This document shows positions 1 through 3,398 of a DNA stretch of 32,000 bases, piece by piece. Both the position numbers and the translations under genes were made by a program. Under the pieces are notes generated by a model that was given only the letters and a program-made list of their open reading frames with translations, made no database searches and had not been told where the DNA came from. Within the stretch, counting starts at the first letter, position 1; every line of letters begins with the position of its first letter. Origin of the DNA: Candidatus Binatia bacterium (GTDB lineage: Bacteria; Desulfobacterota; Binatia; Bin18); the NCBI GenBank assembly GCA_022826945.1, contig JAJDTY010000023.1:115390-147389 (forward strand), in the 5' to 3' direction.

Positions 1-360
1 GATACCTGCTTTGACCCCGTCCTGGTTAATATACACGATGAGGTCGAGGCCGAGTTCGTGTCTGATGTAGGTATCGCGGAAGGTGATCATCTCCCGGAAT
101 TTCCAGGTCGTATCGATATGCATCAGGGGGAAGGGGGGCTTCCCCGGCGCAAACGCTTTCCGAGCCAGATGCAGCATGACCGCCGAATCTTTACCGATGG
201 AGTACAGCATGACCGGATTGTCGAACTCAGCCGCCACCTCACGAATGATATGAATACTTTCAGCCTCAAGATAATTGAGATGCGTGAGGGAATAGGAATT
301 CTTTTCATTCGAGGCGGGCTGAGGCCCACGGGGCTCCACGTCTCCTCCTTCCTCAATCAT
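1..360 (-). CDS. cysD: Sulfate adenylyltransferase subunit 2 (CysD), first 120 codons; the rest lies beyond the left window edge
   Basis: Open-ended, so absent from the ORF track. My reverse-complement translation from ATG (360..358): [120 protein letters not shown]. The block [51 protein letters not shown] is the CysD N-terminal hallmark. The ATG overlaps the stop of the upstream ORF (353) by 8 nt. Confidence 0.9.
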
Positions 361-1105
361 GGGCCGGTGTCGAGCAGACCGAGCAGTGCGGGTTCTTCTC
401 AACCACCTGCTCGGTGCAGTGAAACGCCGGAAATGTATACGCCAACAGTTTTGGCGGGCTCTCCGCCTCGGGCTGAAGGATGATCTTCAGGGCTTCGGTA
501 ACGAGTTGGGTACCCAAGAAGAACGCGTATGGAGAAAAGAGGAAATATGCCCTTCCTCGATCGGCAGATGCGGGATACGTTTCCTCTTTACCGCGGGCCG
601 GAGAGTCAAGCGGACCTCCAGCTCCTGAGAAAAGACAGCGCAGGCAGGGCCGGGCAGCCCTGTCACCCCGACTTACGAATAAGCGGGCGTTTTCTCCGCT
701 GGCCGCTCCCCACACAAACGGCTTGTGCTGAGCGTACCACCCATCGTGCAGCGCATCCGTTGTTGCCAGGACCAGATCATAGTGGTGAGGTGGTTGTTCG
801 TCCTCATTCGGATGGGTCACAATGGTACAATCAGGATTCAGACGCCTGAGTACGTGTGCCACCGGTTGCTCATCCGGTCCCAGGGATTGCTCCGCAAGAA
901 CGGAAAAGATCTGAGCGGCTTTAGCCCGCGCCACGCCAATAGTCCCAACGCCGGCAGCGACGAGATAAAAAAGCGCAGCGGCGGCGAGCAGCCCGTCCCC
1001 GTCAACGTACACCTGACCCTGAAGAATTTTTTCCTGCCCCTTTCCGCCGACCTGGGGCAGAATGATTTGTCGGCTATAGCGTTCGATCTGGACGTCTTCG
1101 AGCAT
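353..1105 (-). CDS. ThiF/MoeB-family E1-like protein with degenerate nucleotide-binding motifs (predicted non-catalytic paralogue)
   Basis: ORF track 353..1105 (250 aa). The N-terminus [22 protein letters not shown] and two CxxC pairs (CLRC, CSVC) are colinear with MoeB/ThiF. The Gly-rich loop reads VDGDGLL instead of GxGGxG, and the DxD...SNLxRQ and GTDN segments are missing. Carries an in-frame palindromic repeat (535-590). Confidence 0.75.
535..590 (+). repeat. Palindromic repeat family X, copy inside the E1-like CDS (in frame)
   Basis: AAAAGAGGAAATATGCCC-TTCCTCGATCGGCAGATGC-GGGATACGTTTCCTCTTTA. Arms and centre align with the other six copies. On the coding (minus) strand it encodes [20 protein letters not shown]. 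Confidence 0.8.
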
Positions 1106-1185
1106 GGGGACTTCTCAAGCCTCTATGAGTCCATTGAGTCTTTGGGGTCTTTTGGGTCAAGACTCAACGGACCCCAATGTCTCTG

Positions 1186-2196
1186 TCACGCTGCACCCTC
1201 TGCCCGAGCGTTGGCCTGCCGCTGATTATACTCTTTCCAGCCGATCCACAGATTGGTGCTGAGATACTTGTCTCCGAAGTCCGGAAAAAGCGTTACCACC
1301 ATGCCCTGATCGATCTCACGGGCCACCTGGAGCGCCGCCCACATCGCCGCGCCGGATGACTGGCCAACCAATACTCCCTCTTCCCGACCAAGCCGATATA
1401 CCGTTTCATAGGCGTCTTCAGTTGAGACGCTGATTTTTCGGTCCAATTGCTCTTCATGGTAGATGCCCGGCACAATGGAGCTGTCCATATGTTTCAGCCC
1501 CTCAAGGCCATGAAAGGCGTCATCCGGTTCAACCCCAACAATCTGAATGTCCGCGTTTTTCTCCTTCAGGTAGCGTCCGGTTCCCATCAGGGTACCGCCG
1601 GTCCCCATGCCGGCCACAAAGTGAGTGATCTGCTCTTTTGTCTGCCACCACAGCTCCGGCCCAGTTGTCTGGTAGTGGGCCAGCGAGTTGTGTGGATTGA
1701 AGTATTGATCCGGTTTGAAATAGCGCTCGGGATGCTCCTGCAGCCGCTCCCGACACAGTTCCAAAGCTCCGTCCGAGCCGTCCATGGGGCTACTGAAAAT
1801 CATCTTTGCCCCATACGCGGAGATAATTTTTTTCCGCTCTATACTGACGTTGGCCGGGATGCACAGCTCGACCGGATAGCCCAGCACGGCGCCGATCATG
1901 GCCAATGCAATACCAGTATTCCCAGAGGTGGAATCGAGAATGATCTTGTCCGGAGTTAGCGCGCCGTTTTCGATTCCTTTTTGGATCATGCACAGCGCGG
2001 GACGATCTTTGACCGATCCACCCGGATTGAAACCCTCGAGTTTGGCATAAACCCGGACACTAGGCGCAATGTCCGTACTCAGCCGGGTAATTTCAAGCAG
2101 CGGCGTATTCCCAATCAGGTGAAGAACGGACGGAACACGCAGGGGACCTGCTGGGGGTGGTCCCTCGGTCGGAAAAAGAGCAAACGTGTCCAGCAT
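1186..2196 (-). CDS. cysM: PLP-dependent cysteine synthase, CysM type (likely CysO-thiocarboxylate dependent)
   Basis: ORF track 1186..2223. Motifs GNTPLLEI, YAKLEGFNPGGSVKDRPA (PLP lysine), GTGGTLMG. ATG 2196 lies 7 nt after the cysO stop. The track start 2223 is a TTG overlapping cysO by 20 nt (alternative start). Confidence 0.85.
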   Translation of the reverse strand: MLDTFALFPTEGPPPAGPLRVPSVLHLIGNTPLLEITRLSTDIAPSVRVYAKLEGFNPGGSVKDRPALCMIQKGIENGALTPDKIILDSTSGNTGIALAMIGAVLGYPVELCIPANVSIERKKIISAYGAKMIFSSPMDGSDGALELCRERLQEHPERYFKPDQYFNPHNSLAHYQTTGPELWWQTKEQITHFVAGMGTGGTLMGTGRYLKEKNADIQIVGVEPDDAFHGLEGLKHMDSSIVPGIYHEEQLDRKISVSTEDAYETVYRLGREEGVLVGQSSGAAMWAALQVAREIDQGMVVTLFPDFGDKYLSTNLWIGWKEYNQRQANARAEGAA

Positions 2197-2203
2197 TTCT
2201 TCT

Positions 2204-2485
2204 CTATCCAGAGCCTCCGGCAATAGCAGGCACGATAGACACTTCGTCGCCCTCGTTCACCGGCGTATCCAGGTTGTTAATAAAACGAATGTCTTCACCA
2301 TTCACAAAGATATTGACAAAGCGACGGACTTCGCCGGCCTCGTCACACAACCGTTCTTTAATCCCAGGATGATTACTCTCTATATGATCAACCAAGGCCC
2401 CAACCGTGGCTCCATCGGCCGAGACTGCTTCCGCGCCGCCAGTAAAGCGGCGTAGCGGGGTTGGGATACGGACCTGAGCACTCAT
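2204..2485 (-). CDS. cysO: ThiS/MoaD-type sulfur-carrier protein (CysO-like) ending ...AIAGGSG
   Basis: ORF track 2204..2512. I moved the start to ATG 2485 (MSAQVRIPT...), which has GGAGGGAG 5 nt upstream. ~93 aa of beta-grasp carrier size with a C-terminal Gly-Gly motif, sitting between an E1 and cysM. Confidence 0.8.
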   Translation of the reverse strand: MSAQVRIPTPLRRFTGGAEAVSADGATVGALVDHIESNHPGIKERLCDEAGEVRRFVNIFVNGEDIRFINNLDTPVNEGDEVSIVPAIAGGSG

Positions 2486-2575
2486 GTTCACTCCCTCCTG
2501 ATTCAGAATCACTCATCTGCTTTTTCTAGCTTCTACTGTTACGTTTTTGCTTCGGTCTGACAATCACCCTGTCCG

Positions 2576-2629
2576 AAAGAGGCAACGTATCCAGCATCTC
2601 GTGTCTAGTGGAGGACACGTTCCCTCTTT
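2576..2629 (-). repeat. Palindromic repeat family X, intergenic copy (E1 stop to cysO start)
   Basis: AAAGAGGCAACGTATCC-AGCATCTCGTGTCTAGTGGA-GGACACGTTCCCTCTTT. 15 of 17 arm positions pair. The centre is the reverse complement type of the TCCAATAG... centres. Confidence 0.85.
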
Positions 2630-2633
2630 ATGC

Positions 2634-3398
2634 TCAGAGCACAGGACAGCGTCTTTCCAACTCATAGGCTTCGGGCCGGATACTCGTAATCGTCTGCTGC
2701 GTGCCGCACAACGGACAATGCGGGCTCGGGCGTACCCGGACCTCTCGCCAGCGTAAGGCCAGGGCGTCATAGGTGAGCAGGCGATCGGTGAGCAGTTCTC
2801 CTTCCCCACTCAGGTATTTCACCGCCTCGGCAGCCTGAACACTTCCCAAACTGCCAGCCAGGCTGCCAAGGATGCCGGCCTCCTGGCAGGTGGGGTTCTC
2901 ATCGGGATGGGGCGGAACGGGGAACAGGCAGCGCAAACACGTCGTTTGCCTCGGTAAGACCGTCAGCGCCTGACCGTGGAACCGCACGATGCCGGCGTGA
3001 GAAAGCGGTTTGTTGAGCAGCACGGCACCGTCATTGATCAAAAACTTTGTGGCCACGCCGTCCGTTCCGTCAATAATAAAATCGTAGGCGGCAAAGATAT
3101 CCGCGAGATTCCCCGCATGCAGCCACTCGTTATAGGTCACCACTGTTATCAAGGGGTTGAGTTGCTGAATTTTTTCCCTGGCCGAGTCGACCTTTGGCTT
3201 TCCGATATCCGGGATAAAGTGCAAAATTTGCCGTTGCAAGTTTGATAGCTCGACCCGGTCCGAATCCACCAGACCAATCGTTCCCACCCCGGCCAGGGCG
3301 AGCGTCAATGCCGCCGGAGAGCCCAGGCCGCCGACGCCGACCACCAGGACTTTCCCCTCACAGACGCTCTTTAGAATAGGAGATGCGGCGCGTTTCAT
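2634..3398 (-). CDS. MoeB/MoeZ/ThiF-type adenylyltransferase (E1) lacking the N-terminal RYxRQ helix and lacking a rhodanese domain
   Basis: ORF track 254 aa. Motifs [51 protein letters not shown], CLRC and CPLC zinc pairs. An in-frame TAA sits three codons upstream of the ATG, so no longer N-terminus is possible. Confidence 0.85.
   Translation of the reverse strand: [254 protein letters not shown]

Follow-up and report, generated by a model that had tools for sequence, protein, structure and literature searches.

The enzymes MoeB, ThiF and MoeZ are symmetric homodimers in which each subunit carries both an ATP site and an RYxRQ helix, giving two active sites. The operon at the start of the window (the whole 32-kb stretch of DNA that was analysed) encodes two proteins of this type, E1a and E1b, and it raises the question of whether they act separately or are two halves of one activating enzyme. 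The minus-strand gene order is E1a (3398..2634), cysO, cysM, E1b (1105..353) and cysD; this order, the reading frames and the coordinates agree with the original prediction. According to that prediction, E1a has every adenylation motif and no RYxRQ helix, while E1b keeps the helix and both CxxC pairs and has lost its ATP motifs. Both descriptions are confirmed, and the features are as follows.

3426..3453, minus strand: terminator-like hairpin with a 12-bp stem and a T-run, between the bamD stop and the E1a start
3405..3407, minus strand: in-frame TAA, three codons upstream of the E1a ATG (3398..3396)
2634..3398, minus strand: E1a, a MoeB/ThiF-type adenylyltransferase (Pfam ThiF), catalytically complete and N-terminally short, 254 aa
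3321..3338, minus strand: Gly-rich ATP loop GVGGLG of E1a, residues 21-26, conserved in the E1a family
3228..3245, minus strand: SNLQRQ of E1a, residues 52-57, with the cis ATP-binding Arg, conserved in the E1a family
2204..2485, minus strand: cysO-like sulfur carrier of ThiS/MoaD fold, 93 aa (Pfam ThiS, E = 1e-19)
1186..2223, minus strand: cysM-type PLP cysteine synthase (NCBIfam cysKM, 355 bits, cut-off 344)
353..1105, minus strand: E1b, a degenerate MoeB/ThiF paralogue (Pfam ThiF), 250 aa, the proposed non-catalytic subunit
1022..1105, minus strand: N-terminal segment of E1b, residues 1-28, the best-conserved stretch of the E1b family
1067..1081, minus strand: RYSRQ of E1b, with R9, Y10, S11, R12 and Q13 invariant; Arg12 is the proposed trans finger
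986..1006, minus strand: degenerate Gly loop VDGDGLL of E1b, residues 34-40, in place of MoeB VGLGGLG
635..646, minus strand: first CxxC of E1b, CLRC, residues 154-157, a retained half of the Zn site; C154 and C157 invariant
374..385, minus strand: second CxxC of E1b, CSVC, residues 241-244; C241 and C244 invariant
1..339, minus strand: 5' part of cysD (sulfate adenylyltransferase subunit 2), running off the window

E1a has the motif set of an active adenylyltransferase. Against Pfam ThiF (PF00899, gathering cut-off 28.1 bits) it scores 242.5 bits (E = 4.5e-72) and covers profile positions 18-237 of 238, and it matches MoeB and ThiF at E = 1e-46 to 1e-48, aligning with ThiF residues 26-245 and MoeB residues 30-248. 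GVGGLG, a DxD motif in the form of DSD (residues 45-47), SNLQRQ and GTDG are all kept across the E1a family, and the cis Arg of SNLQRQ is the counterpart of MoeB Arg73 (equivalence after PMC13139853). The two CxxC pairs of a Zn site are present as CLRC and CPLC, and in alignments the crossover segment is no longer than that of MoeB and ThiF. E1a is without the RYxRQ helix, and a longer N-terminus that might carry it is ruled out because of the in-frame TAA (3407..3405). No RYxRQ-like peptide was found in the in-frame sequence upstream of E1a at any of the eight loci examined. When E1a is aligned with human SAE2, the two N-termini nearly coincide, E1a residues 8-162 matching chain residues 11-165.

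E1b still belongs to Pfam ThiF, at 59.6 bits (E = 3.3e-16), and retains the two CxxC pairs of the Zn site. The motifs of an active adenylyltransferase are missing: besides the degenerate Gly loop, there is no DxD, SNLxRQ or TDN, and six residues are deleted after TTD. Neither E1a nor E1b combines helix and ATP site in one polypeptide as canonical MoeB and ThiF do, and neither reaches the NCBIfam equivalog cut-off of 449 (best 278 for E1a, 80 for E1b). Mean conservation in E1b is 0.94 over residues 1-28, 0.46 in the former DxD/SNLxRQ region and 0.21 in the crossover loop. AlphaFold modelling predicts that the ThiF fold is retained (pLDDT 79.5; TMq 0.71 to ThiF), with the N-helix at a pLDDT of about 50 in the monomer model. 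The crossover region holds a large variable insertion. Since the crossover loop varies and is disordered in the model, E1b is unlikely to bind a carrier tail. Two side observations concern the same gene: Cys93, in RLNPDC, is invariant and specific to the E1b family, and a NIL-domain gene lies directly before E1b in many relatives, a single ORF (P0089) joining both.

The division of motifs between the two proteins is a conserved system, far beyond chance. RYxRQ is present in 120/120 E1b orthologues and in 0/120 E1a orthologues, and GxGGxG in 0/120 E1b orthologues. The E1b family spans more than 100 clusters with 44 invariant columns, and the sequences indicate that selection maintains it even where identity falls to about 40%; over the same set, E1a identity is 64-95%. 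Eight loci were read, five of them reached from E1b (the window, L001, L003, L005 and L006) and three from E1a, and in all eight E1a, ThiS and an intact E1b lie in one sulfate-assimilation operon. About 19 more E1a/E1b pairs share a contig beyond these loci. The linked truncated and degenerate E1 genes for which the original prediction had proposed a survey do recur, and decay of the paralogue in relatives, which it had counted against itself, was not seen at the eight loci. The E1a/ThiS/E1b core is constant and the PLP partner varies, being CysM only, MetM-like only, or both; a PAPS_reduct-family gene takes the position equivalent to cysD in L005, L086 and L088. Taken together, the sequences support E1a and E1b as complementary, co-inherited and co-located, and at sequence level they present what characterizes an asymmetric E1, namely an inactive domain with an Arg-finger helix and an active domain without the helix.

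It seems likely to us that the operon's CysO-type carrier is activated by an asymmetric, MoeB-derived enzyme with E1a and E1b as its two subunits. As far as sequence can suggest a mechanism, the most likely is that E1a pairs with E1b in a heterodimer whose single active site is completed by Arg12 of E1b, acting in trans. E1a would be the active adenylation subunit, binding ATP and the C-terminal tail of CysO, the presumed substrate, and forming CysO-acyl-adenylate. The adenylate would then be converted to CysO-thiocarboxylate, which would be used by CysM or, in relatives, by the ThrC-like MetM. In MoeB/ThiF homodimers, the N-terminal helix of each subunit covers the ATP site of the other. E1a has lost this helix; E1b has kept it, together with the E1 fold and the Zn site, and no longer has an ATP site or a carrier-binding crossover loop of its own. 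In the physical heterodimer that we infer, the RYSRQ helix of E1b would be given to E1a, Arg12 reaching the ATP phosphates, and each dimer would have a single active site, like NAE1–UBA3, SAE1–SAE2, Uba1 and BilD.

The neighbouring genes are consistent with a role in cysteine synthesis. A ThiS-fold carrier adjoins a CysM-type PLP enzyme, as in the CysO–CysM pathway, and the predicted function is to form CysO-thiocarboxylate for CysM to use; the cysM product falls under the NCBIfam cysM cut-off (383 bits vs 394). The cysD gene starts with GTG at 339..337, after a strong GGAAGGAGGAG ribosome-binding site, 14 nt past the E1b stop. A hairpin comparable to that upstream of E1a in the window also precedes E1a in L003. 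The CysO of the window ends in AIAGG-SG, i.e., two residues after GG, where the carrier of relatives ends in GG, and no processing protease for this tail is encoded within the 32-kb window.

Among known systems, MoeB, ThiF and MoeZ (PDB 1JW9, 1ZUD) share with E1a the fold, the chemistry and the two-CxxC Zn site; unlike in these enzymes, the ATP site and the RYxRQ helix of the pair lie on different polypeptides. Mycobacterium tuberculosis MoeZ, with CysO and CysM, likewise has a ThiS-fold carrier ending in GG that feeds CysM. The rhodanese domain of MoeZ is absent from both E1a and E1b in profile searches, no JAB (Mec+) protein was found in the 32-kb window, and the M. tuberculosis-type combination of MoeZ rhodanese and Mec+ JAB hydrolase does not occur there. 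The sulfur source would probably be sulfide from the adjacent sulfate-assimilation genes, because neither E1a nor E1b has a rhodanese domain.

The eukaryotic E1s provide a parallel in design. In NAE1–UBA3, SAE1–SAE2 and Uba1/UBA6/UBA7, the R-x-x-R helix of the inactive domain gives an Arg to the single ATP site, and the active domain has no helix, as in E1a. On the other hand, the crossover loop of E1a/E1b is without an inserted Cys domain, the pair has neither an E2-binding ubiquitin-fold domain nor a cognate E2, and its predicted product is a thiocarboxylate where that of the eukaryotic E1s is a thioester. No E2/UBC, JAB or other conjugation genes are found in the operon or the 32-kb window. 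Judged by these features, the pair lies outside the conjugating E1 families and resembles an asymmetric E1 solely in the adenylation step. The E1b profile gives E = 8e-31 for MoeB and 8e-28 for ThiF (MoeB/ThiF/Uba4 overall 1e-31 to 1e-25), whereas the eukaryotic inactive domains give 0.018 (UBA7), 0.33 (NAE1) and 0.75 (SAE1), which points to an ancestry of E1b among MoeB-type enzymes and not to common descent with the eukaryotic inactive adenylation domains. The asymmetric design arose independently, by convergence, because E1b descends from MoeB-type enzymes and its profile, at E = 0.3-0.9, detects no kinship with NAE1 and SAE1 closer than that of the superfamily. The term "eukaryote-like" in the original prediction is therefore apt as an analogy and fails as a statement of descent.

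Single-chain proteins show the same separation of features. In Bacillota, at least 120 proteins, 454-520 aa long and annotated in their sources as ThiF-family protein only, have both kinds of domain in one polypeptide (e.g., in Thermosediminibacter oceani, L091 6001-7404; P0385), with helix and ATP motifs on separate domains as in E1a/E1b. Among the 125 that were scored, 114 carry the R-x-x-R helix in the N-domain and none has GxGGxG there; in the C-domain, 120 have SNLxRQ and none the helix. The AlphaFold model of one such protein (pTM 0.90; N-helix pLDDT 80-85) is predicted to be a Uba1-like pseudo-dimer: overlaid on Uba1/UBA6/UBA7 with both adenylation domains, it gives a TMq of 0.57-0.65, against 0.45 for single-domain ThiF/MoeB, with a large Foldseek rmsd of 7-14 Å for the two-domain overlays. 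Unlike the pair, these proteins are single chains, their N-domain is without CxxC pairs and no ThiS gene adjoins; a CysK/M-like gene adjoins in L089 and L091. Their median HMM scores for E1a/E1b and canonical MoeB are 56.8 vs 57.4 (N-domain) and 270 vs 320 (C-domain). We regard them as an analogy and not as a fusion of the E1a and E1b genes because they are no closer to E1a/E1b than to MoeB; a true E1a–E1b fusion was rejected for want of specific kinship in these scores.

Two described systems also bear on the proposal. BilD, the E1 of the bacterial BilABCD antiviral system, has an inactive domain that supplies Arg9 to the active site (PMC10557695). Like E1a/E1b it is a bacterial inactive/active arrangement, in its case a pseudo-dimer. 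However, BilD is a single chain, has a mobile Cys domain and, together with an E2 and a deubiquitinase, conjugates proteins for defence, whereas E1a/E1b are two genes without Cys domain or E2 in a cysteine and sulfate-assimilation operon. Yeast Tcd1–Tcd2, the ct6A dehydratase, is a ThiF-family heterodimer in which the paralogue missing the catalytic Arg gives an Arg finger (PMC13139853). It likewise consists of two ThiF-family paralogues with an Arg finger directed to the active partner, as proposed for E1b, although it is eukaryotic, acts on tRNA and still binds nucleotide in both subunits.

The Tcd work also bears on a different reading, which we consider unlikely though far from negligible: E1a would be a self-sufficient homodimeric CysO adenylyltransferase that has dispensed with a non-essential Arg finger, and E1b would have a separate role. 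An E1a homodimer might work alone because the Arg finger of MoeB and ThiF is reported to be non-essential (PMC13139853, citing Lake 2001 and Nagy 2016) and E. coli TcdA is without one; in Tcd the finger is nearly dispensable, R59A lowering activity by 26% (PMC13139853). For the same reason, the word "obligate", which the original prediction had applied to the heterodimer, is questionable. E1b could possibly be a scaffold between CysO-thiocarboxylate and CysM/MetM, a sulfur relay through Cys93, or a regulator together with the NIL-domain protein; the family-specific Cys in RLNPDC and the NIL-domain gene next to or joined with E1b speak for such a role. However, a self-sufficient E1a leaves unexplained why conservation in E1b, which itself lacks a nucleotide site, is highest in RYSRQ and its flanks, why exactly RYxRQ is lost in all 120 partners, and why the split recurs within single chains.

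E1b might also heterodimerize with E1a as a negative or substrate-selecting regulator instead of a catalytic helper, halving the active sites and gating thiocarboxylate delivery to CysM or MetM. The changing CysM/MetM content around a constant core would suit such gating, as would a variable, disordered crossover loop that probably binds no carrier tail, but both Arg residues and the Gln of RYSRQ are invariant, which points to nucleotide contact over a purely steric role and makes this reading improbable. That E1b is merely a decaying duplicate of the operon's E1, similar at its N-terminus by chance or recency, as the loss of all catalytic motifs, the crossover insertion and the low Pfam score might suggest, is scarcely credible and a pseudogene in progress is in effect refuted by the conservation data, given the ORF intact at 8/8 loci, the diversity and invariant columns of the family, the confidently predicted fold and the place of the gene between cysM and the strongly initiated cysD.

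We thus favour the asymmetric heterodimer. The novelty that the original prediction had seen in it has to be drawn more narrowly, asymmetric bacterial E1s being already known from BilD (PMC10557695), though not among sulfur-carrier E1s. A catalytic protein without the Arg-finger helix, beside a catalytically dead paralogue in which little but that helix is kept, would represent the asymmetry of eukaryotic E1s, evolved independently.

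Reading the open reading frames of the window, with families assigned by Pfam and NCBIfam profiles, gave the minus-strand operon listed in the original prediction:

3398..2634, minus strand: E1a, a catalytically complete ThiF-type protein of 254 aa (Pfam ThiF, E = 4.5e-72)
2485..2204, minus strand: cysO, a ThiS-fold carrier of 93 aa counted from the ATG (ThiS, E = 1e-19)
2223..1186, minus strand: cysM, a PLP enzyme (NCBIfam cysKM, 355 bits against a cut-off of 344)
1105..353, minus strand: E1b, a degenerate paralogue of E1a with 250 aa (Pfam ThiF, E = 3.3e-16)
GTG start at 339..337, minus strand: 5' part of cysD, with GGAAGGAGGAG ribosome-binding site 14 nt past the E1b stop

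Neither E1a nor E1b reaches an NCBIfam equivalog cut-off, and what the prediction had observed of their sequences (the frames, the motifs and the stop upstream of E1a) is right in all particulars. E1a carries GVGGLG (residues 21-26), DSD, SNLQRQ (residues 52-57), GTDG, CLRC and CPLC. What it lacks is the RYxRQ helix, the N-terminal helix which in MoeB/ThiF homodimers puts an Arg finger into the ATP site of the partner subunit: its match to the Pfam ThiF profile begins at profile position 18, and its alignment with solved structures starts only at residue 26 of ThiF and residue 30 of MoeB. The codons before its ATG (3398..3396, minus strand) are AGC and GAC, with a TAA at 3407..3405, so that a longer N-terminus is impossible. 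Of the 120 close relatives retrieved with E1a as query (64-95% identity), nearly all measure 241-286 aa, with one exception of 236 aa, and a simple motif count found RYxRQ in none of them. The E1a tail past the second CxxC (TITS...EAYE...C; 2634-2700, minus strand) holds a near-terminal Cys that is about 80% conserved.

E1b is the mirror image of E1a, as had been claimed. It retains RYSRQ and both CxxC pairs (CLRC and CSVC), reads VDGDGLL in place of the MoeB VGLGGLG, has lost DxD and SNLxRQ, and shows a six-residue deletion after TTD. By the same simple counting, RYxRQ occurs in 120/120 E1b sequences and GxGGxG in 0/120. A search with E1b followed the family down to about 40% identity, with members in metagenome-assembled genomes that bear the labels Binatia, Deltaproteobacteria and Thermodesulfobacteriota. 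The window itself belongs to an uncultured lineage, and at 90% identity its polyphosphate kinase clusters with that of a genome labelled Desulfurellaceae. Invariant columns in a 21-sequence alignment include M1, L2, Q6, R9, Y10, S11, R12, Q13, I14, I15 and L16, as well as G20, G21, G23, Q24, E25 and the four zinc cysteines. Conservation over 118 E1b sequences, taken as the average share of the most frequent residue, is distributed as follows:

E1b residues 1-28: 0.94
E1b former Gly-loop region: 0.68
E1b region once holding DxD and SNLxRQ: 0.46
E1b crossover segment, with variable insertions: 0.21

An AlphaFold model of E1b built on the 21-sequence alignment (mean pLDDT 79.5, pTM 0.78) retains the ThiF fold, and its best Foldseek matches are ThiF (TMq 0.71). 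It is poorly defined at the crossover region (residues 162-189) and over residues 1-20, where the N-terminal helix has a pLDDT of about 50; a monomer model would be expected to give this appearance if the helix packs on another subunit. E1b also possesses Cys93 (827-829, minus strand) in the motif RLNPDC, which is invariant, family-specific and absent from both canonical MoeB and E1a. Since a rhodanese domain is absent, Cys93 or the near-terminal Cys of E1a could take part in sulfur transfer.

The two genes travel together. Loci were reached from E1b (the window, L001, L003, L005 and L006) and from E1a (L086, L087 and L088); a scan of genome contigs with the E1b alignment and the pattern ERYSRQIIL yielded mostly canonical MoeB/MoeZ, its sole true E1b locus being L006 (Binatia). 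The survey for co-occurrence near cysO/cysM that had been proposed earlier finds both genes intact in 8/8 loci, within one shared block of bamD/yfiO, E1a, ThiS, E1b and sulfate activation genes (cysD/cysNC or Sat–APS kinase). E1a, ThiS and E1b are constant throughout, as is the order of bamD and E1a. The E1b of L087 was first called as a 154-aa fragment, which is a gene-calling error: the frame is intact and encodes a full-length E1b-like protein. Read as DNA, none of the 8 loci has an RYxRQ-like peptide in-frame upstream of E1a, and in 4 a stop lies at most 15 codons upstream. From two hit tables, about 19 further E1a/E1b pairs appear to share a contig, often one of megabase size.

The variable genes of the block are a ThrC-like PLP enzyme after E1a, CysM after ThiS, and a NIL-domain protein before E1b. 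The ThrC-like enzyme (379-427 aa where called) and the NIL-domain protein (78 aa, stand-alone, directly before E1b) were noted in L001, L003, L005, L086, L087 and L088, for example at 3025-4299 and 5755-5991 of L003, and are without counterpart in the window; one database ORF of 307 aa (P0089) joins NIL and E1b. The ThrC-like enzyme scores above the NCBI threonine-synthase cut-off; its place in the operon makes MetM, the thiocarboxylate-dependent homocysteine synthase that is routinely mis-annotated as threonine synthase (2026 preprint, 10.1101/2024.10.14.618325), the more probable identity.

CysO in the window ends in AIAGG-SG, two residues beyond the usual GG (2207-2212, minus strand), and a processing protease would be required; the search for a JAB/Mec protease gene to account for this tail found none in the 32-kb window. 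CysO of close relatives ends at GG or continues for 12 to 18 residues (SFYPRLAPLSTP and similar). A strong terminator-like hairpin (12-bp stem and T-run; 3426-3453, minus strand) separates the bamD stop from the E1a ATG and gives a promoter no more than about 28 nt of room, and a similar one is located 5' of E1a in L003 (about 2170-2205). It may serve read-through or attenuation control. No Rfam match at E <= 1 was obtained over window positions 1-5200 for a riboswitch or known RNA 5' of E1a or in the spacers. Within the 80-nt cysM–E1b spacer, TTGAGTCTT ... AAGACTCAA form a perfect inverted repeat of 9 bp around a loop of 16 nt (1134-1167, minus strand). The product of the upstream BamD/YfiO lipoprotein gene (3487-4986, minus strand) has a C-terminal extension of about 280 residues, which is very acidic (D/E-rich) and of low complexity. 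Elsewhere, a phosphate-uptake cluster (19164-29865, plus strand) comprises porin O/P, a PstS-like protein, two permeases, an ATPase, PhoU and a PhoB/PhoR-like pair; at 777 aa its first permease is of unusual length, with weak beta-propeller-like Pfam matches at residues 256-429, N-terminal to the transporter domain.

The original prediction joined E1a and E1b into an obligate, eukaryote-like heterodimer that activates CysO. Its core stands on comparative evidence, and the sequences make it probable that the two form a heterodimer with a helix supplied in trans. Such a heterodimer would have one active site, with ATP and the CysO tail both bound by E1a, while the RYSRQ helix of E1b would cross the interface and bring Arg12, which corresponds to Arg14 of MoeB and Arg11 of ThiF, to the ATP phosphates. 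The CysO-adenylate would then be converted to the thiocarboxylate, the sulfur probably being sulfide from the neighbouring sulfate-assimilation genes because a rhodanese domain is absent, and cysteine would be made by CysM (homocysteine by MetM in relatives). The word "obligate" was an overstatement: that the complex is strictly required for activity we hold to be conceivable but somewhat doubtful. Among alternative explanations, an E1a sufficient in itself, with E1b serving another role, is unlikely; it would agree with the literature on a dispensable Arg finger and with the E1b-specific invariant Cys93, but it leaves unexplained why RYSRQ should be invariant in a protein without a nucleotide site. 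That E1b is a regulatory or partitioning subunit inside the heterodimer seems quite improbable, and its reading as a decaying duplicate or pseudogene, rejected on conservation and thereby excluded in practice, has next to nothing in its favour.

A single-chain analogue of the proposed E1a–E1b heterodimer occurs in Bacillota. Proteins of 447-495 aa that consist of two ThiF-like halves emerged when the E1b alignment was used in an exhaustive profile search, and a follow-up search extended this family to at least 120 clusters of about 450-520 aa, including members from Thermosediminibacter oceani, Thermovenabulum, Sporomusa termitida and Clostridium estertheticum, labelled at source only as "ThiF family". 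Examples, besides the protein P0313, are:

L089, 4267-5703: tandem ThiF protein
L091, 6001-7404: tandem ThiF protein, Thermosediminibacter oceani CP002131.1 (locus at 718399-731802)
L092, 6001-7428: tandem ThiF protein, Sporomusa termitida CP036259.1

The N-terminal half is degenerate, with the helix (R[YFH]xR[QH] in 114/125), no ATP loop (GxGGxG in 0/125) and no CxxC; the C-terminal half has no preceding helix (125/125), and carries SNLxRQ in 120/125 and two CxxC in 125/125. One member, P0385, is modelled as a Uba1-like pseudo-dimer (pTM 0.90, N-helix pLDDT 80-85): in Foldseek only one half aligns with ThiF/MoeB (TMq 0.45), whereas both adenylation domains align with Uba1, UBA6 and UBA7 (TMq 0.57-0.65). 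A CysK/M-like PLP enzyme is the next gene in two genomes (L089 and L091), a NifU_N gene precedes in a third, and no ThiS gene adjoins the tandem gene. By HMM cross-scoring, canonical MoeB is at least as close to the tandem domains as E1b or E1a is, which rules out a true fusion of the E1b and E1a genes and leaves an analogy: the tandem proteins either evolved this design independently or are a very old case of it. A MoeB-type enzyme composed of a dead domain with the helix and a live domain without it is thus viable and common in bacteria.

In its proposed working as an asymmetric E1, the pair resembles NAE1–UBA3, SAE1–SAE2, Uba1, bacterial BilD and the yeast Tcd1–Tcd2 heterodimer, but it stands outside the asymmetric E1 families, as it lacks a Cys domain, a ubiquitin-fold domain and an E2. 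The implied kinship with eukaryotic E1s did not hold: the E1b profile matches MoeB/ThiF/Uba4 at E = 1e-31 to 1e-25, and its scores against NAE1 or SAE1 are not significant (E = 0.3-0.9). Neither protein alone is a canonical MoeB/ThiF, and in the CysO/CysM pathway the MoeZ step would be replaced here by another enzyme architecture. In BilD, Arg9 is supplied by the inactive domain, and every other known bacterial E1-like protein was described as a homodimer (2023 preprint, PMC10557695). A 2006 survey of prokaryotic ubiquitin-like systems listed ThiS–E1–JAB–cysteine-synthase operons and no paired E1s. For a bacterial sulfur-carrier E1 that is heterodimeric or has an inactive subunit, the literature covered, which excludes Burroughs, Iyer and Aravind (2009), offered only BilD and Tcd1–Tcd2. 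Asymmetric E1s as such are already known; the proposed one for sulfur-carrier activation, here split over two genes, had gone unreported in that literature.

Annotation gives E1a, E1b and the tandem proteins only the generic name ThiF/MoeB, and pathway reconstruction tools seeking a MoeZ step would mis-score genomes with E1a/E1b. With this finding, the homodimer rule for bacterial E1-like proteins would have an exception that is widespread and metabolically ordinary, namely a two-gene asymmetric E1 for the cysteine (in relatives, homocysteine) thiocarboxylate pathway together with its single-chain Bacillota analogue; the finding would be unexpected for specialists in E1 evolution, with BilD and Tcd1–Tcd2 as precedents. 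It makes the contribution of the Arg-finger helix, on which the literature is contradictory, testable, and it provides a simple bacterial model for why E1 enzymes surrender one of their two active sites. E1b, which has its own invariant Cys93 and often adjoins a NIL-domain gene, may, once freed of catalysis, have gained a new role in sulfur delivery or regulation. The inactive/active asymmetry has so far counted as characteristic of eukaryotic ubiquitin E1s and those of Bil type; we see an even chance that it arose repeatedly in bacterial sulfur-carrier E1s, once as two genes, in Binatia-like and related uncultured lineages, and at least once as a tandem chain, widespread in cultured Bacillota. 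If so, the half-of-sites E1 architecture would be an adaptation of the adenylation step itself that predates, or is independent of, thioester chemistry and E2 hand-off.
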